In this document: positions 9,327-31,647 of the stretch, piece after piece
Numbering within the stretch: position 1 is the stretch's first letter
Layout of the letters: the number at the start of each line of letters is the position of its first letter
Assembly: GCF_024223415.1 (NCBI RefSeq)
Contig: NZ_CP100500.1
Strand: one strand, 5' to 3'
DNA from: Escherichia coli
Lineage (GTDB): Bacteria; Pseudomonadota; Gammaproteobacteria; Enterobacterales; Enterobacteriaceae
DNA: 64,000 bases
The notes under the pieces: generated by a model
What the model was told of the DNA's origin: nothing
Database searches by the model: none
What the model saw: the letters and a program-made list of their open reading frames with translations, nothing else
Made by a program: the position numbers and the translations under genes

Positions 9327-10200
9327 TCAGAGATCTTCGTCTTTCCGGAGACTTCGGATGAATTCAGCCGGAGTCATGTCATTTAATGATGAATGCGTCC
9401 TTTCATGATTGTATTCCCTGCGCCAGCTGTCGAGTTTGTCCTGCGCATCTTCCAGTGACAGGAACCAGTGAATGTTCAGACACTCATCCCGTAGACTGCC
9501 GTTAAATGATTCAATAAACGGGTTATCTGTCGGCTTCCCGGGGCGCGAGAAGTCCATGGTCACTCCGTGTTCATACGCCCATTTATCCAGACTTTTTGAG
9601 ATAAACTCGCTGCCGTTATCTGTCTGAATACGTACCGGCAGGCGCTTACCCGGCACCCGCAACCCTTCCATCACACCGACCACATCCTCGCCTTTCAGCG
9701 ACTTTCCGGCATGGATCGCCAGACACTCCCGACTAAAATTATCGACTACAGTCAGCGCCCGGAAACGCCGTCCGTTAAACAGATTATCCGACACGAAATC
9801 CATATTCCAGCACTGATCGACACCGGTCAGGATGGGACGCTGTTGGCGATGTGCTGCACTGACATGCCTGCACGGACGTTTTCTCCGCAGGTTAAGTCCT
9901 TCCAGACAATAAATCCGGTGTGTTTTCTTGTGGTTAACAGGCCAGCCTTCCTGCCGTAACTGGATATGAATACGCGGGCAACCGTAGCGGATCCGGGTTT
10001 CCGCTATCTCCCTGATGCGCAGGGTTATCGCCCGATCATCTCGCCGACTCTGCCAGTGGTAAACGGTTCTGCTCTGTATCAGCAGTCCACATCCCCGTCG
10101 GACACTGATACGGTAAGCTTCCCGCAGAAAATGTACCGCCTGACGCTTCTGAGCCGGCCTCAGAACTTTTGTTTCAGTACCTCCTGCAACATCTCCTTAT
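9327..10200 (-). pseudogene. IS3-family transposase OrfB (DDE integrase core), disrupted by a frameshift near 9960
   Basis: Manual translation: one frame gives ...ITLRIREIAETRIRYGCPRIHIQ then stops; a second frame resumes LRQEGWPVNHKKTHRIYCLEGLNLRRKRP...MDFVSDNLFNGRRFRALTVVDNFSRE...TDNGSEF...; continuity needs a 1-nt shift. Confidence 0.65.
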
Positions 10201-10426
10201 CCAGACTCAGATCAGCCACCAGTTTCTTCAGCCGCTGATTTTCATCCTCCAGTTGCCGCAGACGCCGCAGTTCCGTCACGCCCAGACCGGCAAATTTCTT
10301 CTTCCAGTTGTAAAAGGTGGCCTCAGAAATACCCATCTTTCTGCAGACTTCCCCGACGCGGGTGCCGGTTTCGGCCTGTTTCAGCGCAAACGCAATCTGT
10401 TCTTCGGTATAACGGGTCTTTTTCAT
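10160..10426 (-). CDS. IS3-family transposase OrfA (HTH, leucine-zipper region)
   Basis: MKKTRYTEEQIAFALKQAETGTRVGEVCRKMGISEATFYNWKKKF... typical IS3-family OrfA. Confidence 0.85.
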   Translation of the reverse strand: MKKTRYTEEQIAFALKQAETGTRVGEVCRKMGISEATFYNWKKKFAGLGVTELRRLRQLEDENQRLKKLVADLSLDKEMLQEVLKQKF

Positions 10427-10554
10427 GGTAATAAGCCTCTCTGTGAGCAGGAAGAAAGACCGGAGACTTCAGTTTAGACTGGTACTGTTTTCAGGGGGGA
10501 GATCAGTTAGGTTCACACATAACGAATTCTAAAAACACCGCCCTAAATTTTCCG

Positions 10555-12786
10555 CTAGTTCTCTACCATCAACCGGGCAAGCTTGGCAAAAATCGAACAC
10601 TTGCTGCTTTCACCGCTCCTGAGCATATCCAGGGTAAAGCTATTGAGATAAACGCCAGTTAACGGGTGGCTAAATACATCTACGGCTTTGCCTTGGGCAT
10701 CCCATATCAGCAGATTTTCCACCAGGTTAGGCCGTGCAATAGTAGGATTTGTAGGCTGGGCATCGCTTACCAGAACAAATACACCATTCTCATGCGGTTG
10801 CAGATAAATATGGTGATGCTTCATCTTTTGCGCTTTGGTCAGCGAGTCGTATTTCGAGCGGCCAGGTGATATCAGATAGGGCAGTACGTTTTGATCCGGT
10901 TTTGCAGAGCGGGTGATGGCGTACCCGTTAAATTTATCCCCTTTACGCTCTGCCAGAGTTTTTTCTTGTTCCTGATAAGCGTATGAATCGACGATATTAA
11001 ATTGCGCCGGGCCAATCAGGCGCGGTACGCGGGAGCTGTTGTAGGTGGTAAGCAGGACATCTGCTGTGTGGTCGTAGAGATAGAAGCTTTTGTCGAATAA
11101 TTTCTTTAATCGTCCCAGAGAGGGGGGATCAACAGACAGATAGTCTAATTTACCTTCAGCGATCCCGGTATCAACCACCCTAAGTTGGCCGTGTTCTATT
11201 TTTAGTTCGACATATCCAAGCAGGGGGAGATAGCTTTTCGTTTTGCGTACTGCATAGGCGGTATAGTGCCCGTCCGCCAAATCTGGTAGTGGGATGTGAT
11301 GCTGATTGAGTAAGCTCTCTTTGAACCATAGCTCGGTTTTTGTTCGGCGAACCTTACTGTTAAGTAAGGTAACTGCTGACTTGAGACGACTGTGAGGCTT
11401 CGTAAGATCGATTTCGTATTGAGTAGGGTTGCTTGTCAATTGTTCATTAATAAAATCAATCGCATCCAACAACTTGTGATCAATATTCATACCCTGTAAG
11501 ACTACGGGCAGAGGTTGCTGATTTAGCCACCCTTGCAAACGATCTAGTTTAAGCTGGGTATAAGTATCCCAATTGAGTTCGGGTTGTTTTCGGGCGTCGG
11601 CAAAGGCCGCATAGAAATCATTGTACTCAACAGATTCATTATCTTGCTGGCGGATGCTGTTGCTCCGCTCTTCATCTACTGCATTGAGTACCAGAATAGA
11701 TGTACTGGCAGGCAGCTCAGAAAAGCCGGTTTGCTGAGAATGTTTAAGCGACGCCAGAGGCCAGAGTTGATACCCGGGGAACTGGATGGCTAATGTGTCA
11801 AAGAAATAAGCTTCTTGCGTGGCGCTAAATTCGACGCCGTTATTAACCACCAACAGCGTATTAGTCAGTTGTTGATCGAGGTCGGTAGCGAACTGATTGA
11901 CCTCGTGGGTGGCCTGAAATGCGATAGGCTGATGCGGGATCTCTAGTTCACTGAGCCGCTCGCAGGCGGCATTCATGACCACGTTATAGGTATAGGCCTG
12001 GCATTCACCATAGCCGCTGCGCTCACGAAAAAAGTCCAGTTTGCTATCCCGGGCATCGAGTTTGCGCCGGGCTTTGAGCCGACGATTATCGATGTTAAAC
12101 CACACGCAGGTATCGTCCAGAGAGAGATGCAATTCATCCTCCGGTTCGACCAGAAATTTTCGTTTGTGCAGGGTAAAGGCGAGTTCGTTATATTCTGATG
12201 CATAAATGTCGAGTTCGAATGCCTCCATCACTCCAGTGCCGCTTTTCTGCGTGACGGGCTGACTCAGGCGAGCGTTGAGATAGAACGTAGAGTTGAAGTA
12301 GGTTGGCGGTACCGAAAAGCGCTCGCTGGCTTGTTCCAGCATTACCATTTTCAAATGCAGACTGAACAATCCCTGAATCAGGCGAGATAAATCATAATTT
12401 TCAGCTGTGAGTCGCTGGCAAAGCGTTTCAATGCGTTCTGCCAAAGTCCGATGCGCTAGGCTGTTCGGTGCAGCAGCAGGCGCCAGGAAAAAAAAGACGT
12501 GATGGTAATTGGGTAAGCAATGCAGCTCATATTTTACTTCCTGTCCGGCCTCAAGCCCAAGCTTCTGCCGCACGCAAGTTTTTACCTCCTGATGAATTCG
12601 CGCATAGTAATCAGCGGATTTTTCTTTTCGCTCTTTAGTAAAGTGCTGAACCATAAAGTCTATCGTATAGATATTAGATACCGGGGCCAATAGACGCTGG
12701 ATTGTTGTCAGCTGATCTTCTTCAAGCTTGATCAAATTGGTACGGGCAATCGGAGTATCCGTCAGCTCATTCAGATTAGGGATCAT
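10555..12786 (-). CDS. Hypothetical 743-aa protein, last gene of the five-gene operon; no recognisable catalytic motif
   Basis: Long uninterrupted ORF; ATG overlaps stop of upstream gene in ATGA arrangement; no Walker, HKD, HNH or methyltransferase motifs seen by eye. Confidence 0.6.
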   Translation of the reverse strand: MIPNLNELTDTPIARTNLIKLEEDQLTTIQRLLAPVSNIYTIDFMVQHFTKERKEKSADYYARIHQEVKTCVRQKLGLEAGQEVKYELHCLPNYHHVFFFLAPAAAPNSLAHRTLAERIETLCQRLTAENYDLSRLIQGLFSLHLKMVMLEQASERFSVPPTYFNSTFYLNARLSQPVTQKSGTGVMEAFELDIYASEYNELAFTLHKRKFLVEPEDELHLSLDDTCVWFNIDNRRLKARRKLDARDSKLDFFRERSGYGECQAYTYNVVMNAACERLSELEIPHQPIAFQATHEVNQFATDLDQQLTNTLLVVNNGVEFSATQEAYFFDTLAIQFPGYQLWPLASLKHSQQTGFSELPASTSILVLNAVDEERSNSIRQQDNESVEYNDFYAAFADARKQPELNWDTYTQLKLDRLQGWLNQQPLPVVLQGMNIDHKLLDAIDFINEQLTSNPTQYEIDLTKPHSRLKSAVTLLNSKVRRTKTELWFKESLLNQHHIPLPDLADGHYTAYAVRKTKSYLPLLGYVELKIEHGQLRVVDTGIAEGKLDYLSVDPPSLGRLKKLFDKSFYLYDHTADVLLTTYNSSRVPRLIGPAQFNIVDSYAYQEQEKTLAERKGDKFNGYAITRSAKPDQNVLPYLISPGRSKYDSLTKAQKMKHHHIYLQPHENGVFVLVSDAQPTNPTIARPNLVENLLIWDAQGKAVDVFSHPLTGVYLNSFTLDMLRSGESSKCSIFAKLARLMVEN

Positions 12787-15700
12787 GATACTTTTCCTTT
12801 AGTCGGCAACTTTTCTACACCCAGCAGGGTTAGTAACATTGGGTTTATATCCAATGTCATGCGCAGTTTCGAGTTTTCCTGAGCGCGTCCGCTCTCTCGA
12901 TTTTTGGGCTGATAATACTGGTAGTCAGTTTGCAACAGGTTGAGGTAGTGGATCGTGTGATCCACATTATCCTGCCACATCAGATTATTAGGGTTCTGGC
13001 TGTAGGCGACGTTCAGATAGATAAATCGAATACGTTCATAACGGCCTGCCAGCGCCGTCTGGAGCTGTTTCTGCCCCTCAGTATCCGCCTTTTGGCTGGC
13101 GATATTACGGATCTGGCGAATCTTGTTGTCGCTTTTCTCAAGCGTTTCTTCTGCCCGCGTCAAATCGTCCAACTGTGTCGCCCAGCGCTTAACGTCGATG
13201 CAGAGCAGGTCGTCGCCCACTTCAATAAAGCGGTCAAAAAACTCATAGACCAGCGGTTCAAGGCGTTCAAACACCTGCTGGTCGGAGAGTGGGGTAACAC
13301 CATAACTTTTTAGCACTTTATCGAAGAGATATTCACCGACATTGCCTTTGAGCAACGGAACTAGCCTGGGGTTGGGTACCCATTTTTTGAATGCCTTTTC
13401 CTGGATGTTGTCACATTCACGAATCAACTCGCCGACCAGGTTGCCGGGGGTAAAATCGACATCGTTTCTATACTGCGGAAAGAGGGTGAGCTCTGGCCGG
13501 TACTCTCTTGCGCCGCCAGCGAAATCCGACAGGGCGGAATAATCTCTGTGGGCAAGTCCATCCGGGCCGCGTTTGTGGCAAAGTAAAATCGTTTGATTCC
13601 CTTGCTGACGATCGATAAACAGAGCGTCGTGAACAGATTGCATTTGTCGATTGGCGGTATACAAGGGATTAGCCTGGAGTTTTGCCAGCCAGCGCTGGGG
13701 ATCGGTAAAGGAGTCAGGATCGCGGAATAAATTACATATCTCGAGATAATCGAGATTGCCAGCGCGTACCTTATTAATCCAGTCGGTTTTAAGGACACGT
13801 TTGTGAATTTCATCGATGCGGCGACCATTCGCGACGATAGCTTGCTCAAACGTCAGTCGCTGTTCCGCATTATTGAATGACTGGCCCTGACTCAGCTTTT
13901 CGCACTCCTCCATGAGTCGGTGGTTAAGCAAAGACATACTTTCTGATACCACCTCGTTACCGCTATCTTCACTAAGAGCGGCGAACTGAAATGCAACATT
14001 ACGGAACACATCGCGGGGTAAAAAGATTTCTGTTTTCAATAGAGTGTCGCGACGCTCGACTCGCCCTACGGCCTGCACGACGACTTTGAATAAGCTCATA
14101 TCATGTTCGGCCATTAACAGGCGATAGTTTTCGCCGTGGGCGAAATTAACGTTGAAATCGGCCAGCTTGTGGACGGTAATATCGTCATCGGCGTAGTGTT
14201 TAAGCACGGTAACGTAGTTAGGTAATGTATTGAGGTTGCCGCTGTTGTCCTTTACTTCGCTGTAAAACGAGGAGTTGATGAGCACTAAGCGCTCAAAATC
14301 GACATCCAGACGTGGTGCATTGATATCATTAATATCGCCGTCATGGTATTTAACAAAGTAGTTGAGGCCGGTACCCGCACTTTTATAACTGCTCATAAAT
14401 ACCAGTACGGTATTGCTGTTCTGGAGATAGGTTTCTTGCCTGATATCTTCGACATTAGCCAGTGGTGAATCGAAAAAGACCAAATGGACGGTGTGACGCC
14501 CTTTGAATGGGGTAAAGGTCAGGATCTGGTCATGTTTCTTACCGTTATCCGTTTTTTCATCGCACCGGGAGTGCATACCGTACTGCTGACGCCAGGTTGT
14601 CTGGTGCGTGCGCCAGGCGCTGATAAAGGCCCGCTTAAACGTCCCTGAAAGTGACAGAATCAGGCTGTTTTTACCCTCCCAGGCGGCAAGCAGTAACGCT
14701 TCCAGTTCCCGCTGGCACTGACGCCGTTTATAGGTATTTTTCAGGTCGTATTCCAGCGGTTTCTTCAGCGCGTCGAAAAAGTTGTCATACGTCCTGCGAT
14801 AGATTTCACAATTTTGGTAGATATCGGTCAATTTTAACTGCTTATCATCGAACACCCTGAAGTCTACGTTGCGGATACTGGCCCTCAACCCGCGTAATGC
14901 CTTAAGCGTATCGATATCTGCCTTTTCGCGTTCAACGACCCGGTAGCCAAGGTCGCGGCTATAGTGCGCCAGGAAGTGACGATTGAAGTTACCGTTTTTG
15001 GTGTGGCTAAAACCGCTGGTGGCGCTAAGCCCAATTACTTTATTGTGCGTGCCGGTTAATAAACGCAGCAGCATGGCTTCAGGCAACTCTTGTACCAGAT
15101 CCATCTCGAACGCCAGAATAATTGTGCGCTCGGCTCCCCTGTTCACGTAATTGAGTTCAGCTATCGGCGTCATCGTGAATACGGTTTTGGGTTGCAGGTA
15201 AGTGTAGAAATGATCAATCAACAAGTTTTTATCGGTGGTGCGATCGAAGATATGTCGCACCACGCCGGCTACGTTATTGGCTGCGTCAACAAACTGGCCC
15301 AAAGGCGTATTCTGGCTGCTGGAGTTGTCCTGGCCACCATTCTTTACCCAGCGCTTAAAGTGCCGGTTGGTGATTTCAGAACAGGCGGCGAGGATGACGG
15401 AGACCAACTGGAACAGATCGTGCAGAGTGGGGTTGGTGTCATTGGCATCATTTTCGACTTCGTAATACAGTTCGGTGCGCGTTATGTCGCCTTCGCTGTT
15501 GCGCATGCGAATGCGTTTCAGCCCTTCTTCATTGACGTACATTTTGGGGTTAAAGCTGAATACGTTGCGGGTGATTGAGATGATGCGTTCGGCGGCGTCG
15601 CCGTTGACTTCAAATGCCCCTAACTGGTCACGAAACATCTCCAGGATCGATCCCAGCCTTGTACCGGGGGATAGTTCGCACTTTTCCGCCAGTAAATTGC

Positions 15701-17498
15701 GCAGAGTAGTGATGAATTTGACCATCTCTTGCTCAAAGGTCGTTTGCGCTTCTTTGGGCTTGTTTCGGCGTTCTAAGCTGAGTACCGCGTTGTGAATACG
15801 TCCTGCGACGGAAATAACGTGCGCCAGGTTATTTTCCTGTGTGATTAGCTTTACATGGCATGTTTCTTCAAGGCGAGTGTAGGCTTCATGTAGTTCATCA
15901 ATGATCACCGTAAAACGAATATTTTTCTGGCGAAAAGGACAATCTGGATTGCGTCTGAAGTGTTCGTCGCGAAGATAGGTAACCTGCCCGGTATGACCGG
16001 CTGCCGCAACGGTGCTAATCTGTGGATCTTTGGGAGTCAGCTTACCGCCAATCAGCAAGTCGAAACCTACGGACTCAAAACGCACACCTTCGCCTCGCTG
16101 ACGAGGCGCCAGTCGGTAAGTTGATGTGTCGAACTTATTCGTGGTCATTAATAGCACTGACGGGCGGTACTGGCAAACTTCGAAAGGCAATACCTGTTTG
16201 ATAAGCTCGAAATAGACTTCGTGTACGCTTATCTTAGGTTCAAGCTTTCCTGGTTTTCGTGCTGTCTCCGCGTTTTGCATTCGCTCTTGCCGCGCCTGGA
16301 GCCCGCGACGAATGTACTCTTTAATGGAAGCTTTTTCACTATCTGGTCCAAATAGTAATTTACAGGCTGACTCAATCGTATTGCGGATACTGTGACGGCA
16401 GTTTTTTAGCTGTTCTTCGAGAATTTCTCTTTCGTAGTTGGTATCCTGAGAACCGTATGTTGTCAGCTTTTTTAACTGCTCTTCACAGCGATCAATTTGT
16501 AAGACATGATAATTGAGCGAACGAATAGCGCCGCCGATATATTTGCTGCCTTTCGCCCCTTCGTACCACTGAATATAGCTGTCGCGGTTTTTCAGACCAG
16601 AGGCCCAGTCCATAAAGTCGAGGTCGGCAACATCCTTACGGGAGAGAACGCAAATGAACTCGCCGCTAGCGGCCAGAATTTTCTCTTTCTGACTGCTGTC
16701 CAGGTCGATTTGTGATTTTTGCGGTGACATGAATAGCAGGTTGGTAAAGCCACCTTCAGGAAACAGATCGTCTGACTTTTGGGTTTTGGCGAAGCGCTCC
16801 AGATATTCGACATACCCTTGGATCACGCCATAGCTTTTGCCGAACCCCGTGCCGTCGGAACTGAAGATGACCTCAGCGCCATCACGTTCATGCACGTGGT
16901 AAAGTTGAGAGACTTGGGCGCGACAGGCGTTAATCTCTTTAATCAGCGTTATGTCAGGAATTTGCCTAGAGATGAGATCTTGCAGATTATTATTGATATT
17001 TTTCTCTCCAACACGCTCACACTTGCGGTAACTATTGATGGTTATTTGGCCGCTGTCGATCAGAATCTTTTCCACCTGTATGGGGGCAAGATGCAAGGCT
17101 GTCGCGATTTCATTGATAGTATTGGACAGTGGTTCGTGTGGATTGCTAATCGTGAAGTGGTTTAGTGCTGCCGCAACGGTATCTGGATGCAATGCTTTTC
17201 TGAGGGTGGGAAAGGTGAGGCTGTAATCGTATAGCGCCAAATCATTGCTTATCAGGCAGCGAAACAGTTGTTTAGTGGGATCGCCACCAGGACGGCTGGC
17301 AAATCCCAAGATTTTTGCCTGTTCGAGGCGATAAAGCAATGCTGCGGCATCGCGGTCAGGTGAGTCAAATGCATCGTGGAGCTGCTGGCTAAATGGCATT
17401 GTGGCATTCAGCCGGTTATGGCTGACCAGCGCGGAAAAGAGCTGACGCACCAAGGTTAGCAGCTTACAATCTTCCTCTATAGTCCAGCTTTTTCTCAT
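12783..17498 (-). CDS. Large SF2-type helicase-like ATPase (~1571 aa from preferred start; ORF track start 17534) with unusually long inter-motif insertions
   Basis: Walker A DGTGFGKSYG, Walker B IIDELHE, motif III LSATSG, motif VI QAVGRVERR spread over ~930 aa; strong SD (AAGGGGAAGAAGA) before ATG at 17498, 11 nt after upstream stop. Confidence 0.6.
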   Translation of the reverse strand: MRKSWTIEEDCKLLTLVRQLFSALVSHNRLNATMPFSQQLHDAFDSPDRDAAALLYRLEQAKILGFASRPGGDPTKQLFRCLISNDLALYDYSLTFPTLRKALHPDTVAAALNHFTISNPHEPLSNTINEIATALHLAPIQVEKILIDSGQITINSYRKCERVGEKNINNNLQDLISRQIPDITLIKEINACRAQVSQLYHVHERDGAEVIFSSDGTGFGKSYGVIQGYVEYLERFAKTQKSDDLFPEGGFTNLLFMSPQKSQIDLDSSQKEKILAASGEFICVLSRKDVADLDFMDWASGLKNRDSYIQWYEGAKGSKYIGGAIRSLNYHVLQIDRCEEQLKKLTTYGSQDTNYEREILEEQLKNCRHSIRNTIESACKLLFGPDSEKASIKEYIRRGLQARQERMQNAETARKPGKLEPKISVHEVYFELIKQVLPFEVCQYRPSVLLMTTNKFDTSTYRLAPRQRGEGVRFESVGFDLLIGGKLTPKDPQISTVAAAGHTGQVTYLRDEHFRRNPDCPFRQKNIRFTVIIDELHEAYTRLEETCHVKLITQENNLAHVISVAGRIHNAVLSLERRNKPKEAQTTFEQEMVKFITTLRNLLAEKCELSPGTRLGSILEMFRDQLGAFEVNGDAAERIISITRNVFSFNPKMYVNEEGLKRIRMRNSEGDITRTELYYEVENDANDTNPTLHDLFQLVSVILAACSEITNRHFKRWVKNGGQDNSSSQNTPLGQFVDAANNVAGVVRHIFDRTTDKNLLIDHFYTYLQPKTVFTMTPIAELNYVNRGAERTIILAFEMDLVQELPEAMLLRLLTGTHNKVIGLSATSGFSHTKNGNFNRHFLAHYSRDLGYRVVEREKADIDTLKALRGLRASIRNVDFRVFDDKQLKLTDIYQNCEIYRRTYDNFFDALKKPLEYDLKNTYKRRQCQRELEALLLAAWEGKNSLILSLSGTFKRAFISAWRTHQTTWRQQYGMHSRCDEKTDNGKKHDQILTFTPFKGRHTVHLVFFDSPLANVEDIRQETYLQNSNTVLVFMSSYKSAGTGLNYFVKYHDGDINDINAPRLDVDFERLVLINSSFYSEVKDNSGNLNTLPNYVTVLKHYADDDITVHKLADFNVNFAHGENYRLLMAEHDMSLFKVVVQAVGRVERRDTLLKTEIFLPRDVFRNVAFQFAALSEDSGNEVVSESMSLLNHRLMEECEKLSQGQSFNNAEQRLTFEQAIVANGRRIDEIHKRVLKTDWINKVRAGNLDYLEICNLFRDPDSFTDPQRWLAKLQANPLYTANRQMQSVHDALFIDRQQGNQTILLCHKRGPDGLAHRDYSALSDFAGGAREYRPELTLFPQYRNDVDFTPGNLVGELIRECDNIQEKAFKKWVPNPRLVPLLKGNVGEYLFDKVLKSYGVTPLSDQQVFERLEPLVYEFFDRFIEVGDDLLCIDVKRWATQLDDLTRAEETLEKSDNKIRQIRNIASQKADTEGQKQLQTALAGRYERIRFIYLNVAYSQNPNNLMWQDNVDHTIHYLNLLQTDYQYYQPKNRESGRAQENSKLRMTLDINPMLLTLLGVEKLPTKGKVS

Positions 17499-17509
17499 TC
17501 TTCTTCCCC

Positions 17510-19708
17510 TTAATATAAATGCCCCTGCAACCACTCCGTCACGCGTTCAATATTAAAAGCACGTAATCCATATTCCTGCGTCAGCAACGTCTCGGGTAAA
17601 TACTCATCATATTTTTCGAGGCACTTTTCAACGATGCTTTCGGCAAGACGGGATTCGTAAGGTAGCCCTTCCTGAAGTGCGCTGAATAACGCTTGTTTAA
17701 CCTCCGAGACCGTAGTTTTTTCTACTTCAACCACACCAGCAAATGAGCCCGCCTTGAAACCGCGTTGGATAAGTAATGCCGACAACGTGTTTACGGTTTG
17801 ATCGCCTAGCCAGGGAAGAATGTAGACATGCTGTCTCTGCTGAATAAAACATTCCGAAGCCAGATTATTGTTGCGAAAACAGTGCAGCCCTTCATCAAAC
17901 AGGTTTTTGGCCGTGGTATCGGCAAAATCGGCCTTGCGATTGCCAACGGTGATGCGGTAGTCGCCTTCCCGATAAATAGTGAGCATTTCTTGGCGGACGA
18001 CATCATGAATGGACATCCCTTGTCCGCCAAATAACGGCGGCTGCCCACCCTTTGTCGCCTCGACATAAATAACTTTTTTATCACTATCGATATCGGTTAC
18101 CTTCCAGCGTCGACCGCCGAAAATAATGTGTTGATCAGGCATCAGTGGGGAATCAACGGGAATGGAGCCCAGTGTTTTGCTCCCCGCCACAATGCGAAAC
18201 TCTTCCGGCGTGCTGAACACGGCGTAGAAGGTGTATTGATTTACCTGACGTTCGCCCTCGACGCCCAGAACCAGTTCGCCGCTTGAGAGCTGGGTCAGAA
18301 ACTGGTGCTCCCCCATATGTTTCAATAACGTTTTGAAGTCATAGATCCGGACTTTCTGAAATGGCCCTTGCAGGCATAGCTGTGACCAGATCTGATCCGC
18401 ACGCACGCCTCCCCACTGCGCCACGATCGCCAGGATCTGATGGAACAGGGTGGAATAGTGCATCTGCCGGGTATCAGCTGGCTCAAACCATTTGTTGCCG
18501 ATAAGTAAGCGGATCATGGCCAGCGACTGAACAAGCTGAAGCCTGAGCTGGTCGACAATGCCTGATGTTGGCGTCAGTTCATGTTCGGCAATCAGCATTC
18601 TCAATACGGCAGGCGAGTCGCGCCGACCGGAGCGTCCCATTCGCTGACGCAGGCTGGCTACGGAATGGGGGGCGGTAACTTGCACAACGGAGCTGACTTT
18701 ACCGATGTCGATGCCAAGCTCTAACGTCATCGTACAGATGGCGGTGGTGGGTAAGTTGCCTTGTTGAAGCCTCTGTTCCAGCGTTTCACGCAGATCTCTG
18801 GACAGAGATCCGTGATGGGGAAAGAACTCATTGGGAACGATGCTCGCTTCACTGAGATCGCTAAGCGTGGCGGCAATGCTTTCGGTCCGTTTGCGACTAT
18901 TAGCGAACACCAGATGGGAATCACCACGACAGAGGCGAAAGATATCATGGCAGATTTGCGTCTCTGCCGACGGTGGAGATTGCTGGCCCGAGGTGGTCAG
19001 CGGTTCCAGATAACCTTTCACCTGTACTTTTAGCGTGGCGTGAGTCTGACTGTCGGTAATAATGTCACAGGGCAGACGTTGATTTGGCCGCAGAGATAAC
19101 GGCACCTGTTCCAGTTCCCCCAGCGTTGCGCTGAGTGCGACTCGGGGGACTGGATTGTTGATTCTTCCCAGCAGGTGATCGACTCGATTTAACAGAGAGA
19201 GAAGCTGCATACCCCGCTCAGAACCGATGAAAGCATGGAATTCATCAATGGCGATATATGCCAGTGGCGCGAAAGCCTGCTTTAACCATCCCGCATTGCG
19301 GATCAGCATCGCTTCCAGCGATTCCGGGGTGATAAGCAAAATACCGGCAGGATTCTTCTTTGCTTTCAGCTTTTTGCTCTGCGCAACATCACCATGCCAG
19401 GGCGTGACCGGCATCTCCAACGCATCACCGAGGTTTTCCAGCCTTCGATACTGATCGTTAATCAGGGCCTTAAGCGGGCTGATGTATAAAATGCCAAAGC
19501 CGCCCTGAATATCCGCAATGGCAGAACAGGCGGGCAGGAAAAACGCTTCTGTTTTACCTGCGGCAGTCGCGGCGCTGATCAGAACATCCCGATCGCCCGC
19601 TAATATCGGTGAAACGGATTTTTTTTGCAGTTCCCTGAGATCGGCCCATCCCTGCCGGTATATCCACTTCTGTATCCGTGGATCCAGCCGCTGGTATTCG
19701 TTCATCAT
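17510..19708 (-). CDS. DEAD/DEAH-box (Lhr-like) helicase; SngC-like
   Basis: Motif I AATAAGKTEA, motif II DEFH, SAT motif, motif VI RQRMGRSGRR; ATGA overlap with upstream ATPase gene. Confidence 0.65.
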   Translation of the reverse strand: MMNEYQRLDPRIQKWIYRQGWADLRELQKKSVSPILAGDRDVLISAATAAGKTEAFFLPACSAIADIQGGFGILYISPLKALINDQYRRLENLGDALEMPVTPWHGDVAQSKKLKAKKNPAGILLITPESLEAMLIRNAGWLKQAFAPLAYIAIDEFHAFIGSERGMQLLSLLNRVDHLLGRINNPVPRVALSATLGELEQVPLSLRPNQRLPCDIITDSQTHATLKVQVKGYLEPLTTSGQQSPPSAETQICHDIFRLCRGDSHLVFANSRKRTESIAATLSDLSEASIVPNEFFPHHGSLSRDLRETLEQRLQQGNLPTTAICTMTLELGIDIGKVSSVVQVTAPHSVASLRQRMGRSGRRDSPAVLRMLIAEHELTPTSGIVDQLRLQLVQSLAMIRLLIGNKWFEPADTRQMHYSTLFHQILAIVAQWGGVRADQIWSQLCLQGPFQKVRIYDFKTLLKHMGEHQFLTQLSSGELVLGVEGERQVNQYTFYAVFSTPEEFRIVAGSKTLGSIPVDSPLMPDQHIIFGGRRWKVTDIDSDKKVIYVEATKGGQPPLFGGQGMSIHDVVRQEMLTIYREGDYRITVGNRKADFADTTAKNLFDEGLHCFRNNNLASECFIQQRQHVYILPWLGDQTVNTLSALLIQRGFKAGSFAGVVEVEKTTVSEVKQALFSALQEGLPYESRLAESIVEKCLEKYDEYLPETLLTQEYGLRAFNIERVTEWLQGHLY

Positions 19709-21021
19709 AATCTGAAGTCGGCCAGACCGTCCTCATCGGCATCTTCTGCCGATGTTATTTCATCCATATCACTGGGTTTTTCTTCCGCGATCGCGACACC
19801 GGCGATTAACTGTGACCACTGAATGGATGGGTTTTGTTCCAGCACGGCCAGCATATCCAGGAAGGCTTTAATCGTGTTTCGTGGCGTACGGAAATAGGCA
19901 TCGCCAATAGTGTTGCTACAGTGGCGTAAAAATGCCGTCAGAGCATCATCAGGAACCAGATACTTATCCGCATCGCCGCCGGAATAAACGTGACGAAGGT
20001 TTTTCAACAGAATATAGAGTTCTTCCGGCGTCAGGCTGGCTAAGTGCAGGGAAGGGGACGAATAATCAATGACACCAGCCCGCTGAGCGAAGCTATTTTC
20101 CGCCAGTCGGGACTGGAGCGCTTCGTAGCTGTACAACCCCTTGCGCGGATCGAACAGGAATTCTGGCGTACCGCCAAGTAAAAAACCGATATATTCAGCC
20201 GTCCCTTGCAGGCAGTCATTCAGAATACGCAGTATCTGTTCATAGTTGGCAACGCGGGCCTGAGTGTTACTGAGCTTATACAGATTGACCATCTCATCCA
20301 GATTCACCAGCAGACCCGCGTATCCGGCCTGACGGACAAACAGGCTCATCAGCTTTAGCGAATCGTAGAAAGAGGCATCAGAAATAATGGTGCGCACACC
20401 CAGATCGTTACGGGCGTCGGTTTTCGTGGTGTATTCACCTCTTAGCCAGCGGATGGCATTTGATTTCAATGTCTCATTATCCTGCTCGTGGCCCTGCCAG
20501 TAACATTCAATGACTTTGGCGAAATCGTAACCGCCAACCATATCAGACAGGGCGGCGAGCTTTTGGTGAATAATCGTCGGAACTGACACATTTGTACTTT
20601 CTGCTTCTTTTCTGGCTTCCGTGATAAAGCGCTCAACCACGCTTAATAATGCGTTTCCATCCGGCTTATTTCGGGTGGATAGATTTTTCATTAGCTCGGA
20701 GTAGAGGTTACGCGCCTGCCCACCCGTCGCGTGGATGCGCCTGTCCGGGGATAAATCGGCGCTGATTGTCACCAGCTTTTTTTCTAGCGCAATTGAGCGC
20801 ACAACGCTTAAAAAGAATGTCTTACCTGAGCCATATTCCCCAATAATCAGCCGGAGTCCTGCGCCGCCATCAGCGATACGCTCAATATCCTGATACAGCG
20901 CTTTTATTTCGTTGACCCGGCCAACCTGAATGTGCTGAATACCAATTTTAGGCGTAACACCTGACTTCAGTGACTGAATAATAGCGTCTCTTTCTTTGAG
21001 ACGAATACGAATGCCAGACAT
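19705..21021 (-). CDS. P-loop ATPase (438 aa); SngB-like
   Basis: Walker A GEYGSGKTF, Walker B-like LLVNLDEM; 3 nt after stop of TerB-domain gene. Confidence 0.6.
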   Translation of the reverse strand: MSGIRIRLKERDAIIQSLKSGVTPKIGIQHIQVGRVNEIKALYQDIERIADGGAGLRLIIGEYGSGKTFFLSVVRSIALEKKLVTISADLSPDRRIHATGGQARNLYSELMKNLSTRNKPDGNALLSVVERFITEARKEAESTNVSVPTIIHQKLAALSDMVGGYDFAKVIECYWQGHEQDNETLKSNAIRWLRGEYTTKTDARNDLGVRTIISDASFYDSLKLMSLFVRQAGYAGLLVNLDEMVNLYKLSNTQARVANYEQILRILNDCLQGTAEYIGFLLGGTPEFLFDPRKGLYSYEALQSRLAENSFAQRAGVIDYSSPSLHLASLTPEELYILLKNLRHVYSGGDADKYLVPDDALTAFLRHCSNTIGDAYFRTPRNTIKAFLDMLAVLEQNPSIQWSQLIAGVAIAEEKPSDMDEITSAEDADEDGLADFRL

Positions 21022-21024
21022 AAA

Positions 21025-23352
21025 TTATCCTTTGAGTTCTTGTGCAATTTCCAGGTCAACGTAAATATCATCGTCATCATCAAGCACCGGGGCGTCAACC
21101 TGTTCGAAAGACCAGTCATTAATTGCTTCAATCGCGCCGCTTAGCATCAAATTAAACTGCTGGCATAGCTCAGCGACTTCGTTTCGCGCCCAGCGTTCTT
21201 TTTCCTGCAAACGTTGGTAAAGTTGATGATGTGCTTCATCAAGACCTGCGCCAGCGTGTGGCGGGATCTCCGCTGGGGATTCGTCTGCGGGTTCATCTTC
21301 GGTGAAGATGGTGTTCAGTAACTGGCGTACGTCCGTTGTGTCGGATTCATGACGGGCAAGGATCCGTTCATCAAGAGAAAACGCGCCGCTCGTCGCTGAT
21401 GGGGTTTGTAACGTAGCTGTCGGAGTTGTTTCTGCGGTTGACAGTCGGTGGATATCGCTGGTAACGGCACTGCTGTCCAGACCGAGGCTGGCGTAGATTT
21501 TTTCCAGTTGTTTGATTTCAGCCGGATCGATTTTTCCATCTGCGCAGGCGACGCTGATAATCACGTTGCCAATAGTGGATTTATCTTTATCGCTGAGTTG
21601 CTCAATTTTACCTTTCAGACCAGCCTGATTTGCAGGCGTATTGAGCCGCCAGGTGAGGTAGGCGTGCAGCGAACGTTTTTCTGTTGGCGACAGCGCATCG
21701 TTATGATTAATCGTTTTCTCCAGCGCGGCCTGTTCAGCAACATCCACGCGCTTGTCCATTTGTGCAATCATGGCACCCAACCGAAGCGCCACAGAGACTG
21801 ACGTAAATTCCGCCGACGGTACGTAGAATTCCGCATGCCCTTCAGGAAATAAAACAAGATGACCTTCTGGATCCGGTCTGACAAGGTGATAGCGCATATC
21901 CGGCGCAATGCCGTAGCCTGCTCGCCGGGCGAAATTTTGCATCAGCTCGGCTTCTTTCTTATTAATCTTATCCGGTACAGGCATACCCAGTCTGGCCCAG
22001 AAATCAGCCACTGTCGCCAGTCCTGAATGTTCACGGATTTTCTCATCTGCCCAGTGTTTAAATTCAGCAAATAGACGTTCTGCATCTTCGGTCAGTATTT
22101 CATCGGGAAGCAGCATGATGGCGGCGACATCACTTGGTGAGGCATCTTTTTTACCGAGATAGCGACTGTAGGCATCCAGCGCGTTGATACAGGATTCTGC
22201 AACAGAAATTAATTTCTGAACTGGGGCTTTTAAAACGCTGGGATCGGGAAGATCCATCTGTTTTTTTACCTGAAGTTCCCGAAGCGTACCACTGGCGGGG
22301 GTATAGCTTAAATACAACCGTGTTTTATTGGGTTTGACGACAATACCGTCACCGTATTTTTGAGTATAACGCTGTTTGAATAATGCGGAAAATTCAGCAT
22401 GACATCGACGGGCAGGCGTGCGCAGGGTGTAATCAGGAAAATAGTATATCCATGCCAGTGCCAGAGCGGCACAAATAGGTTGTCCTTTATCGACCACAGT
22501 CGCTAGATTTAATCTGAACAGTAATGAACTCCTCGATGAGAAATATTCGTTTTCGGTATATATAGAAAGCAACTTCGGTCGGAGAACGATCATCATTTCC
22601 AGCAACTGCGTTGCATAATGCCGGAAGGAACCGCTTGCCTGAAATACGGTTCTCAGGCGCGATATCTCTTCGAATAATGCTTTGAATTCATCGTCAGAAA
22701 TGGCTTCTTGTGTGCCATCGGCCAGTACGCGGCGTTCTAGACCGTAAAAATAGATAAAAACATAGCCAACGGGGCAGCTCGCATCGCTGCGATCGCTTGC
22801 CAGCCAGTCAAGATAGGCGCCACGGCAGCGAGGGGAGAGTGTGGCAAAGCTGGGCCAGTATCCCAGTGACTCATCATAATAATGCCGTGAACCAGGCTCG
22901 ATGGGAAAAGCGTCATTAACCAGCGAAGCGTCGGAGTCATCGTTATAAAGATATCCATATTCTCCTGATGAATGTGTTTTTAACCGCCCGCCGAAATAAA
23001 AATAACCGTGATTAATGACGACATTTTGAATGGTGATGCTTTCTCCCGGTTTGACCCATCGCGCTGGAGTGGTATTGCTACGGGCGGCGTTTTCTCGTGA
23101 CGGCTGGCGGCTGGTGCTGTATTCAACCGTCTGCCCGTTCACAAAAGTAAAGGTTGCCAGTTCGTCATCATCGGAGGCCTGAGAATGCATATTTGTCATG
23201 CTGTTATCTGGCTTATTGAGAGATTTCTGTCGAGATGAATGATTTATTTTGGTGATGATTTTGTTGTTTACTCTGGGGGGCGGCGATTTTTTCTTTTTGG
23301 AAAACAGAAGCCAGATAACCGCCAGCATAATAACAAATATCCAGAAGCCCAT
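21025..23352 (-). CDS. Membrane-anchored TerB-domain protein (775 aa); SngA-like
   Basis: N-terminal TM helix (GFWIFVIMLAVIWLLF) followed by lysine run; C-terminal segment VIISVACADGKIDPAEIKQLEKIYASLGLD resembles TerB-type motif. Confidence 0.55.
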   Translation of the reverse strand: MGFWIFVIMLAVIWLLFSKKKKSPPPRVNNKIITKINHSSRQKSLNKPDNSMTNMHSQASDDDELATFTFVNGQTVEYSTSRQPSRENAARSNTTPARWVKPGESITIQNVVINHGYFYFGGRLKTHSSGEYGYLYNDDSDASLVNDAFPIEPGSRHYYDESLGYWPSFATLSPRCRGAYLDWLASDRSDASCPVGYVFIYFYGLERRVLADGTQEAISDDEFKALFEEISRLRTVFQASGSFRHYATQLLEMMIVLRPKLLSIYTENEYFSSRSSLLFRLNLATVVDKGQPICAALALAWIYYFPDYTLRTPARRCHAEFSALFKQRYTQKYGDGIVVKPNKTRLYLSYTPASGTLRELQVKKQMDLPDPSVLKAPVQKLISVAESCINALDAYSRYLGKKDASPSDVAAIMLLPDEILTEDAERLFAEFKHWADEKIREHSGLATVADFWARLGMPVPDKINKKEAELMQNFARRAGYGIAPDMRYHLVRPDPEGHLVLFPEGHAEFYVPSAEFTSVSVALRLGAMIAQMDKRVDVAEQAALEKTINHNDALSPTEKRSLHAYLTWRLNTPANQAGLKGKIEQLSDKDKSTIGNVIISVACADGKIDPAEIKQLEKIYASLGLDSSAVTSDIHRLSTAETTPTATLQTPSATSGAFSLDERILARHESDTTDVRQLLNTIFTEDEPADESPAEIPPHAGAGLDEAHHQLYQRLQEKERWARNEVAELCQQFNLMLSGAIEAINDWSFEQVDAPVLDDDDDIYVDLEIAQELKG

Positions 23353-23535
23353 TCCTTGCCCTTAATCGCTGATAACGCTTCCCGGCATTGTTCTACGATA
23401 GGCAAAGGCGGTAAGCATAAAACTGGAAGAGAGATCGTAAAATGATACCGCGAATGGGCTAGAGTACAAGCATAAAAACCCTATTATTCAAAAGGATTAT
23501 GTCATATGGCTGGGGGAGCAATTGGCAGGACCAGG

Positions 23536-24603
23536 TTATACCTCTGAATCACGCATAAAACGATTGATTTCATCTTGCGCATGACGAAGACGATCGGCAA
23601 TGTCAGCAAATCTGTCAGGCTGATGAAAGAACATTCCCCCTTCCACCGCCGTTTGATGATCCCCGGCGATCGCTGCGAACCGTTCAGCATCGTCAGGCAA
23701 CAGTTGCAGGTTTCCGACAATCACCTGAGTAAAATCCACACCCGGCACAGACCAGCGACGTTGCTTCATCTCGACCACATTGCGCATGGCTTCCAGCGTT
23801 TCATAGGGGCTGGCAAAATGATTACTCAGCAGACAATCCACATCATACCAATGGCGTGCCAGTCGGGCCGGATTTGGCGCTTTGGTTTGCGTGCAGAACT
23901 GGTGCAGCGCCGTCAGCTTTTCCCAAAGAATATAACCGGTGTCATAAGCGTTTACGGTCGCGGTGGGTAACTGGAGTGTATCCATGCCTGCGATCCCGGA
24001 CAGATAGCTTACAACAGGCATCAGATCGGTTGGCTTGCCACGATTTCGTCCGCCAAATTCCAGCAGAATATGATCGCGCTGATAGGCCATACTGTCTTCT
24101 TTCACCCGTGGGAAATAGATATCGACTTTTTCGCCACCACTGTCGGGTTCCATTTTTGCTTCAAGGCCCGGAATTTCATAAGTCTGAAAGCGTTGGTTTA
24201 ACCGTTCTGCCAGCGCGTTTGTCCATTCTGTTAAGCGCTCTTGCTGCTGCTCTCTGAACCGGCGATTCTGGCTGTTATTTAGCGTGCTTTGCTCCCATGC
24301 CTGCTGTTCTTCCTCTTCTGAGTGGCCTGCCAGATCGGCCCAGTGAACAGAAAGATCGATATCTTCAGAAAAACGCTCAATCACGTTCCAGCATTTGCTT
24401 AACGCCGTTCCACCTTTAAACGCGACAGATAAACCTCCCAGCAGCTCCTCATTAAAAAGTAACCGAAGGATCTCCGTTACCCAGAGATCCTTTTCCAGAA
24501 AGCTGGCTCCCAGCCCGGAGGGATGCTGCTGCGCCGCGTAAGAGAGGATTTCCTGAAGCTCGCGACGTTGTGATGCGCTCCGGTAGTAATCAAAAATGTC
24601 CAT
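23536..24603 (-). CDS. AbiEii-family nucleotidyltransferase toxin (ORF track start 24642; ATG at 24603 overlaps antitoxin stop)
   Basis: FKGGTALSKCWNVIERFSEDIDLSV motif characteristic of AbiEii/DUF1814 nucleotidyltransferases; ATGA overlap with upstream gene. Confidence 0.78.
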   Translation of the reverse strand: MDIFDYYRSASQRRELQEILSYAAQQHPSGLGASFLEKDLWVTEILRLLFNEELLGGLSVAFKGGTALSKCWNVIERFSEDIDLSVHWADLAGHSEEEEQQAWEQSTLNNSQNRRFREQQQERLTEWTNALAERLNQRFQTYEIPGLEAKMEPDSGGEKVDIYFPRVKEDSMAYQRDHILLEFGGRNRGKPTDLMPVVSYLSGIAGMDTLQLPTATVNAYDTGYILWEKLTALHQFCTQTKAPNPARLARHWYDVDCLLSNHFASPYETLEAMRNVVEMKQRRWSVPGVDFTQVIVGNLQLLPDDAERFAAIAGDHQTAVEGGMFFHQPDRFADIADRLRHAQDEINRFMRDSEV

Positions 24604-25262
24604 CAGAGCGCCTTTTGCAACGTTATCAGCTGCGAGCGCCACGCGTGAAGCGCAGGCTCATTCATCAACTTTCCGGCAATCTGCCGTGCTTTAGCGGACG
24701 GGATGCTCAGCCGATGAAAAGCATTCTTCAGCGTTTCCAATGGGGTATGTTGCTGATCCAGACTCAGCAAACCGCGCATCAGCTCTCCTTCAGGCCGGTT
24801 CAGCCAACGTAACCGACTTGCTGATTTATGCTGGATCCGTACCCGCTCATTGCCGACGCGGAATTCTCGCGTAGGGCCGTTTGACCAGTAGATGCGTTTA
24901 ACTGGCGCCTGCGTTTGCAGCCCCAGCCGGTAAGCGGCTTCCAGCCCCTGAAGGGTGATTTTGTAACCACGCTCTTTTGCCCATGCGGCGGCAACGGCAT
25001 TGGCGCTGGCAACAACGTTAACAGAGGGGATGTTTTTCAACGGCTTTGGCCGGGAGTAGAAACCGCGTTCAACCCGGACCAGCAGGCCTTCTTTGACCAG
25101 ACGGCTCATTGCCTGTTGTACCGACGCACGGCTTCCCAGCGAGTAAAACCCGCTGATGGAAAAGGGGATGCCACGCTTCATGCGGTGAACCCGCTGGCGG
25201 GCCAGAGCGGCAACAGACATTGATTCTCCTGTACTGACGTTTTCATTGATATGTATTTTCAT
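24603..25262 (-). CDS. AbiEi-like antitoxin / transcriptional regulator (type IV TA)
   Basis: 219 aa immediately upstream of and overlapping AbiEii; N-terminal wHTH-like region ...SRLVKEGLLVRVERGFYSRP. Confidence 0.65.
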   Translation of the reverse strand: MKIHINENVSTGESMSVAALARQRVHRMKRGIPFSISGFYSLGSRASVQQAMSRLVKEGLLVRVERGFYSRPKPLKNIPSVNVVASANAVAAAWAKERGYKITLQGLEAAYRLGLQTQAPVKRIYWSNGPTREFRVGNERVRIQHKSASRLRWLNRPEGELMRGLLSLDQQHTPLETLKNAFHRLSIPSAKARQIAGKLMNEPALHAWRSQLITLQKAL

Positions 25263-25418
25263 TATATCCCTTGTGTAGCAAGGAGTCTAACCTAAAAAAT
25301 GTCAGTAATATTCATTCTATGACAATGTTTAAAATGGCAGATATCAGTGAGGTAGCTTGCTGTAGGAAATTCCGACGATAAAATACCCACATACAGCAGG
25401 CGGTGATAAGGATATAGC

Positions 25419-27614
25419 ATGAGCATTCTCTCCATCCACGGCGTTCGCAGTTATCAGGGCGAAAGGCCAGTGGAGTTCGACTTGAGTAAGTATGTCACTC
25501 TTATCTATGGACAAAACGGCTCAGGAAAATCAACCGTTTCTGGTTACTTTTATAAGCATGGTCGTCCAGATTACAGCCAGTGCAGCCTGCGACCTCCACT
25601 GGATATGAACTACCTGGTGTTTAATCAGGAGTATGTAGACGATATTTTCAGCCAACCTTCTCAGCCGGGCATTTTCACTTTAAATAGTGAAAATGCAGAA
25701 ATTAAAACTGAAATAGATGCTCTGGAAGCGGAGAGTAAAGTTTTGTTTGCCCGGCGTGATGCTTTGGACGTGCAAAAACGCGACGTTGAGGGCATGGAAG
25801 AAAGTATTAAAAATGGCTCCGCAAAACAGATTTATAGTTCTACCGCAGAAATCAGAAAAACAGATTTATGGGATTTGATGTCTGGAACTAAACAGACCGA
25901 CAAACTTTTTCAGACCATCCTTGAACACACTGAAGTCGAAGATACTTCGACGCAGGAATTAACCGAAGAACTACACCGACTTGAAGCCAGTAAAGGCAAC
26001 CCTTACGCTTTGCTCGAAGCATTGCCAGCATCCCCTTTGAATGACAATGATATTGCGCTATTGATGCAACCTCTTATTCCAGCAGGTGATAGCCGTCTTG
26101 CTGCCGCAATTAACCAATTGGGCAACATTGACTGGGTGAGGAATGGACAGCAGTGGCTGAGTGATGACATTTGCCCATTTTGTCAAACGCCGATAGATGC
26201 CCGGCAACTTCAACAGGAAATCACTGCCCTTTTTGATACCTCATGGGAAGCTGCGATGGACCAGTTGCGGGAACTTCAGGCGCGATATCAATTCTGGCAC
26301 GATAAACCCGAACATATGCGGCAGTTAATAAAAACGTGTCCGTTAGTTGATCAGGAACATCCTGTTTATCTCTATCTACTTGAACTGGAGCAGGCGTATC
26401 AAAGAAATAAATTGCATATCGATGAGAAATTGACATCACCCTCTGCGTCGATTGCTGTTGAGGATCTTTCTGCTCTGGCTGGCAATGTCTCTGTGCAGAT
26501 AGCCAGTATTAATACAATAATAAGCGAACATAACCGAAAGGCTGAAAATTATCAGACTGAACGGGTTAGACTGAAACAGAGACTACTCAGTCATATCCGA
26601 AAACTGGCTACCGATACGATAATTAACCATGATGAACAACTAGCAGAACTTGCTGAAAAATTGGCAAAATTAACGGTGTCTCGGGATGAAATTACGGCCC
26701 AGCTTGATACGCTGAACGCAATTATTCGCGGTAAATCCAGCCTGATCGTCAATACGCAGGAAACGATTGAACGTATTAATCACAGCTTGGATAGCCTTGG
26801 AATCACTGGATTCCGCATTGCTCCCTATGACGATCGGGATGATTATCGTCTGGTGAGGGAAGGTGAGAACAGCGATACGCCTGTTTTTAGTAGTCTGAGT
26901 GAAGGGGAAAAGACGCTGATTGCTTTTCTCTATTTTCTGGAGACTTGCACAGGGAGAAAAAGTCGTGATGACAATGACCAACGAAAACGTTTAATTGTCA
27001 TTGATGATCCTATATCCAGCCTGTCGCAAAACTATGTTTTTGAAATAGCATCGTTGATCCAGCATCAGGTTATACGTGCCAGAATTGGTGAGAAAGTGAT
27101 TATTCTGACGCACAGCCTGTTTTTCTTTCAGGAGTTACTGCTTTCTGCGGAACGGAAGAAAAGGGCAGCGGGTTCTTGCCCACCAGAATGGACGCTTTAT
27201 CGGGTATCCAAATCCTTACATAGTTCTGCTTCCCTTGTTTCCGAAAAAGAATTACTGAACGACTATCAGGCACTCTGGTATGTCTTACGCCACGCCCAAA
27301 AAGATGACATTGCCAGTGTGGTGATCCCAAATACGATGCGGCAAATCCTTGAATACTATTTTGGTTTTTCGGGGAAAAGTGAGACGCTTCACCGGGCGCT
27401 TGAAACACTGGCGAGCGGGCCTGAAGGTGAACCTGGTTTCCGTATATTTGCTCGTTATCTAAATCGACATTCTCACCAGGATGCCCGCAATATCTCTCTT
27501 CATGAGGGGGCTTCGGTTGAACGCTATCTTACCTGGTTTAAGAAAGTATTCGAGGCGGCAAAGGATGAAGAGCATTACACATCAATGATGGAAAAGACGA
27601 CACAAACGACCTGA
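25419..27614 (+). CDS. ABC-type (SMC/RecF-like) ATPase, candidate RloC/PrrC-like anticodon-nuclease family defence protein
   Basis: Walker A GQNGSGKST at N-terminus, Walker B/D-loop LIVIDDPISSLS and H-loop ILTHS ~500 aa later, CPFC (CxxC) in the intervening predicted coiled coil, ~170-aa C-terminal domain. Confidence 0.45.
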   Translation: MSILSIHGVRSYQGERPVEFDLSKYVTLIYGQNGSGKSTVSGYFYKHGRPDYSQCSLRPPLDMNYLVFNQEYVDDIFSQPSQPGIFTLNSENAEIKTEIDALEAESKVLFARRDALDVQKRDVEGMEESIKNGSAKQIYSSTAEIRKTDLWDLMSGTKQTDKLFQTILEHTEVEDTSTQELTEELHRLEASKGNPYALLEALPASPLNDNDIALLMQPLIPAGDSRLAAAINQLGNIDWVRNGQQWLSDDICPFCQTPIDARQLQQEITALFDTSWEAAMDQLRELQARYQFWHDKPEHMRQLIKTCPLVDQEHPVYLYLLELEQAYQRNKLHIDEKLTSPSASIAVEDLSALAGNVSVQIASINTIISEHNRKAENYQTERVRLKQRLLSHIRKLATDTIINHDEQLAELAEKLAKLTVSRDEITAQLDTLNAIIRGKSSLIVNTQETIERINHSLDSLGITGFRIAPYDDRDDYRLVREGENSDTPVFSSLSEGEKTLIAFLYFLETCTGRKSRDDNDQRKRLIVIDDPISSLSQNYVFEIASLIQHQVIRARIGEKVIILTHSLFFFQELLLSAERKKRAAGSCPPEWTLYRVSKSLHSSASLVSEKELLNDYQALWYVLRHAQKDDIASVVIPNTMRQILEYYFGFSGKSETLHRALETLASGPEGEPGFRIFARYLNRHSHQDARNISLHEGASVERYLTWFKKVFEAAKDEEHYTSMMEKTTQTT

Positions 27615-31625: not shown

Positions 31626-31647
31626 TGGTGCCGGACTCGGAATCGAA
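31626..31647 (-). repeat. 22-nt fragment matching the tRNA-Phe 3' end with one base deleted; second copy of the attachment-site repeat
   Basis: Reverse complement TTCGATTCCGAGTCCGG-CACCA; same orientation as the copy at 9120..9139; ~125 nt beyond the integrase start. Confidence 0.65.

Follow-up and report, generated by a model that had tools for sequence, protein, structure and literature searches.

The minus-strand segment 17510–23352 of the window (the whole stretch of Escherichia coli DNA that was analysed, 64,000 nucleotides) is very probably an intact sngA–sngB–sngC operon of the Shango anti-phage family, carried on a horizontally acquired chromosomal island at the tRNA-Phe (pheV) site. 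Three open reading frames fill this segment exactly (Table 1), lying adjacent on one strand in the A–B–C order that is the Shango arrangement. They are translationally coupled, with a gap of 3 nt between sngA and sngB and an overlap of 4 nt between sngB and sngC. The triad is an already described system and not a new kind; an earlier note on this DNA, which offered a recognition call and no new claim, was correct in this, and its recognition of Shango from motifs alone, without tools, provides a clean positive control.

Table 1 Features of the Shango operon and its surroundings (aa, residues of the protein; -, minus strand; +, plus strand)
Feature	Position	Strand	Description and evidence
sngA	21025..23352	-	775 aa, membrane-anchored TerB_N/TerB/TerB_C protein; PADLOC SngA 4.6e-97
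SngA N-terminal transmembrane helix	23299..23349	-	aa 2-18, GFWIFVIMLAVIWLLFS, then KKKK; read from translation
SngA TerB_N	22411..23049	-	aa 102-314; Pfam PF13208, 2.5e-44, 152 bits, cut-off 25
SngA TerB	21466..21783	-	aa 524-629; Pfam PF05099, 2.5e-9, 37.9 bits, cut-off 24.4
SngA TerB_C	21031..21408	-	aa 649-774; Pfam PF15615, 7.5e-29
sngB	19705..21021	-	438 aa, BrxC/BrxD-family P-loop ATPase; PADLOC SngB 4.1e-187
sngC	17510..19708	-	732 aa, Lhr/BrxHI-like SF2 DEAD/DEAH helicase; PADLOC SngC 1.2e-273
apsA (not Shango)	12783..17498	-	1571 aa, ApsAB anti-plasmid helicase-nuclease
apsB (not Shango)	10555..12786	-	743 aa, Argonaute-like ApsA partner
AbiEi (DUF6088) + AbiEii pair	23536..25262	-	Separate toxin-antitoxin/abortive-infection system; PADLOC AbiEii 2.8e-193, AbiEi 7.2e-46
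AAA_13 ATPase	25419..27614	+	Separate gene, PADLOC candidate PDC-S06, 3.3e-242; Pfam AAA_13 7.7e-104
tRNA-Phe 3'-end copy	31626..31647	-	22 nt, island boundary (att repeat); sequence read

Identity of the three Sng proteins

Profile searches of both Pfam and PADLOC gave matches far above chance. In the PADLOC search, the SngA, SngB and SngC profiles were the best matches to the three proteins and were covered nearly in full (positions 12–524 of 528, 4–438 of 439 and 4–718 of 720, respectively). The transmembrane helix that had been proposed for the first protein is present as a hydrophobic segment at its N terminus, and the run of lysines that follows it indicates, by the positive-inside rule, that the body of SngA beyond the helix should be cytoplasmic. 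All three TerB-related domains of SngA scored above the Pfam cut-offs; a first gene without TerB, which for the earlier note would have refuted its reading, is not what the searches showed. The segment that the earlier note had likened to TerB (ADGKIDPAEIKQLEKIYASLGLD; exact string match at residues 604–626, nucleotides 21475–21543) does fall within the Pfam TerB match, but sits in the C-terminal third of the protein and not at its extreme C terminus. The sequence motifs named for the other two proteins were all located by exact string match. SngB (Pfam BrxC_BrxD, 3.9e-151) carries Walker A GEYGSGKTF (residues 61–69, nucleotides 20815–20841) and Walker B LLVNLDEM (residues 237–244, nucleotides 20290–20313). 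SngC (Pfam DEAD, 5.5e-30; Helicase_C, 1.4e-14) retains SF2 motifs I, II, III and VI intact, with AATAAGKTEA (motif I) at residues 46–55 (nucleotides 19544–19573), DEFH at residues 155–158 (19235–19246), SAT at residues 193–195 (19124–19132) and RQRMGRSGRR (motif VI) at residues 354–363 (18620–18649). It belongs with the Lhr-core helicases: the NCBIfam model TIGR04121 (Lhr-like) matches residues 11–649, and among solved structures SngC comes closest to mycobacterial Lhr (5v9x, 7lhl) and YprA.

The operon is closely related to a protective Shango of the same species, that of E. coli KTE113 tested as construct SG206 (Millman et al. 2022). The two are alike in gene order, which consecutive gene identifiers give for KTE113, and in protein lengths (775, 438 and 732 residues in the window; 769, 438 and 732 in KTE113). 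Alignment over about 400 residues gave identities of 54% for SngA (residues 55–405, the N-terminal half being compared), 88% for SngB and 76% for SngC (both over the deposited N-terminal ~400 residues). The window copy is thus an allelic variant in which SngA, the least conserved of the three components, has clearly diverged; it also lies in the pheV island, fused head-to-tail to apsAB. A second Shango has been studied in Pseudomonas aeruginosa PA14 (Johnson et al. 2023). Because the 6.7-kb KTE113 clone and the three-gene PA14 clone each give protection, three genes suffice for defence. Phage protection has been shown for these homologues only.

Relatives of Shango and a possible mode of action

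The second and third genes have relatives in BREX, and the triad could instead represent a remnant or accessory pair (BrxD + BrxHI) of type 2 BREX (Pgl) that lies by chance beside an unrelated TerB protein. The SngB ATPase and the Lhr-like SngC helicase are indeed homologous to this pair: PADLOC matches SngB to BrxD (1.3e-41) and SngC to BrxHI (5.5e-118), Pfam files SngB under BrxC_BrxD, and a published helicase tree places SngC, BrxHI, DruE and DpdJ in one clade. The Sng profiles nevertheless score far higher, with 2–4 times the bits of the BREX profiles (620.6 versus 141.2 for SngB and 908.3 versus 393.2 for SngC), and the NCBIfam BREX_BrxD equivalog, at 137.7 bits, stays below its cut-off of 350. 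Chance adjacency is also at odds with the translational coupling of the TerB gene to the ATPase gene and with their travelling together in E. coli, Brenneria and Xenorhabdus. PADLOC found no BREX core matches among the neighbouring genes. Besides the five operon genes (the sng genes together with apsA and apsB) and the AAA_13 gene, the 64-kb window holds no open reading frame of more than 530 residues, and therefore has no room for PglX (the methyltransferase), PglZ, PglW or BrxC; what it has instead is a TerB membrane protein. With the core genes absent and the profile scores lower, we reject a type 2 BREX fragment as highly improbable and retain the assignment to Shango, in line with the earlier note, which had named BrxD/BrxHI-type proteins as the competing assignment.

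Like Shango, the Bunzi (BnzAB) and Dionysus (DinABC) systems use a TerB-domain protein, which presumably acts at the membrane. The partners differ, being membrane or pore-forming proteins in Bunzi and Dionysus and an ATPase and a helicase in Shango, and PADLOC gave no Bunzi match for the first gene. The association of TerB-N/TerB-C proteins with an ATPase and a helicase was reportedly first predicted by Anantharaman, Iyer and Aravind in 2012. In reviews as late as 2025, TerB-based defence is still described as unexplained, and a literature search for a mechanistic Shango paper found none.

In the mechanism that we infer for the Sng proteins, SngA would be held in the inner membrane by its single N-terminal helix, with TerB_N, TerB and TerB_C in the cytoplasm, and would serve as a sensor or scaffold where phage DNA enters; such a membrane-sensing role is argued from the TerB literature and from the single transmembrane helix only. 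SngA would control a complex of SngB, as a BrxD-like P-loop ATPase, and SngC, as an Lhr/BrxHI-like SF2 translocase. This complex might load on phage DNA or on replication intermediates and block replication through ATP-driven translocation or unwinding. Since no recognisable nuclease domain was found in SngA, SngB or SngC, interference would be either non-degradative or dependent on nucleases of the host. Either would be in keeping with the modest protection (10–100-fold) reported for Shango. The presence of this allele in tractable E. coli, next to a system whose readout is known, makes it a convenient model for studies of mechanism.

The Shango–ApsAB tandem

Shango lies directly upstream of a second defence system. 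The two genes downstream of sngC encode ApsA and ApsB, an already characterised DdmDE-like pair that forms an anti-plasmid system of a helicase-nuclease and an Argonaute-like protein (Zongo et al. 2024). The apsA gene starts 11 nt past the sngC stop, and apsB overlaps apsA by 4 nt. The continuation of the transcription unit, without a break, into these two large genes of a separate known system had been missed by the earlier note.

Neither ApsA nor ApsB has a Pfam match, and a text search for the RefSeq accessions of both genes returned no paper. The best Protein Data Bank matches of their structure models are DdmD and DdmE; this likeness to DdmDE (Vibrio cholerae, Lacticaseibacillus casei) is seen in structure models and not in sequence, where even profiles gave no match to DdmD or DdmE. 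About 175 residues at the N terminus of ApsA form an additional domain that the Pseudomonas homologues lack. The SF2 helicase motifs of ApsA (GFGKS, DELH, SAT and QAVGRVER) and its C-terminal PD-(D/E)xK motif D...DVK are invariant in 16 homologues, down to 21% identity, and all were found in the window protein at an offset of +2 from the published numbering. An invariant motif and published mutagenesis are the basis for a C-terminal nuclease domain at residues 1376–1571. ApsB has the MID-like motif Y-x3-K...QG...K and a C-terminal Asn; the residues concerned (Y409, K413, Q431, G432, K489, N743) do not vary across 22 sequences and are all present in the window protein. The pair occurs as apsA then apsB in every locus examined, from 91% to about 20% identity.

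The close junction raises the question of whether the real unit is a five-gene sngABC–apsAB system with functionally interdependent halves, which would leave the three-gene call incomplete. No terminator-like hairpin was found in the 11 nt between sngC and apsA. The same tandem recurs with a gap of 10 nt in Brenneria sp. 4F2 and, with a gap of 9 nt, beside lptFG on a metagenome contig that is unrelated; in Xenorhabdus sp. DI the two systems are adjacent but convergent. A decayed 3' stub of sngC also persists at loci with apsAB only, in Xenorhabdus griffiniae and in at least 51 genomes of E. coli, of the LS4 and NMBU types. Interdependence is contradicted by function on both sides: three-gene Shango clones protect against phage on their own, apsAB alone under pBAD removes plasmids from MG1655, native apsAB is active in ST38 strains, which have no Shango in their islands, and ApsAB was inactive against the 8 phages tested. 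The halves also occur separately. The three sng genes are mobile as a cassette, with Shango DNA in 32 of 5426 complete E. coli genomes; apsAB is missing from 11 of these 32, in which the Shango is of the window type (a different five-gene cluster follows sngC at one such locus, L003). Conversely, most of the 148 genomes with apsAB are without Shango, and Shango was never found at the distant ApsAB loci (L006, L008, L009, L012, L013, L018 and L019). An obligate five-gene system is accordingly rejected as very unlikely, each half being sufficient alone, and we keep to a three-gene Shango followed by a separate ApsAB.

The decayed sngC stub upstream of apsA is one small new point of this analysis, in both E. 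coli and Xenorhabdus. From its presence at loci with apsAB only it follows that the Shango–ApsAB tandem is ancestral in enterobacteria and that Shango has been lost repeatedly. The strains that have apsAB only and carry the stub include those with the clinically important ST38-type islands, and the stub shows that ApsAB was kept as Shango was lost repeatedly. All lineages without Shango have retained the end of sngC (the last 150–440 bp before apsA), a hint that expression of apsAB might depend on a sequence embedded in sngC. The stub also marks the region in which to look for the native apsAB promoter. A scan of positions 10000–25600 for sigma-70 promoters and terminators returned counts at or below shuffled expectation; for neither sngA nor apsA did a candidate convince, and we claim no promoter. 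There is a slim chance that Shango and ApsAB are more than neighbours, having started in enterobacteria as a co-transcribed five-gene unit, with an apsAB expression sequence embedded in sngC and possibly with cooperation between the two. Such anti-phage/anti-plasmid cooperation might run, for example, through a common trigger or DNA substrate at the membrane.

Setting in the tRNA-Phe island

Islands with Shango, AbiE and apsAB together have already been described, with a drawing of the AbiE–Shango–ApsAB layout at a tRNA gene (Zongo et al. 2024). The window allele is found in 19 near-identical RefSeq genomes. With the system catalogued, the allele in 19 genomes and the island layout published in 2024, the biological gain is small. 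Identity to strain SCU-316 ends at position 31647, inside the tRNA-Phe of SCU-316; ARAGORN found no intact tRNA in the window. Upstream of sngA, the RefSeq annotation of an identical locus also gives AbiEi/AbiEii for the pair in Table 1. The C terminus of the AAA_13 ATPase is PrrC-like (PADLOC PrrC, 3.9e-16, residues 493–728).

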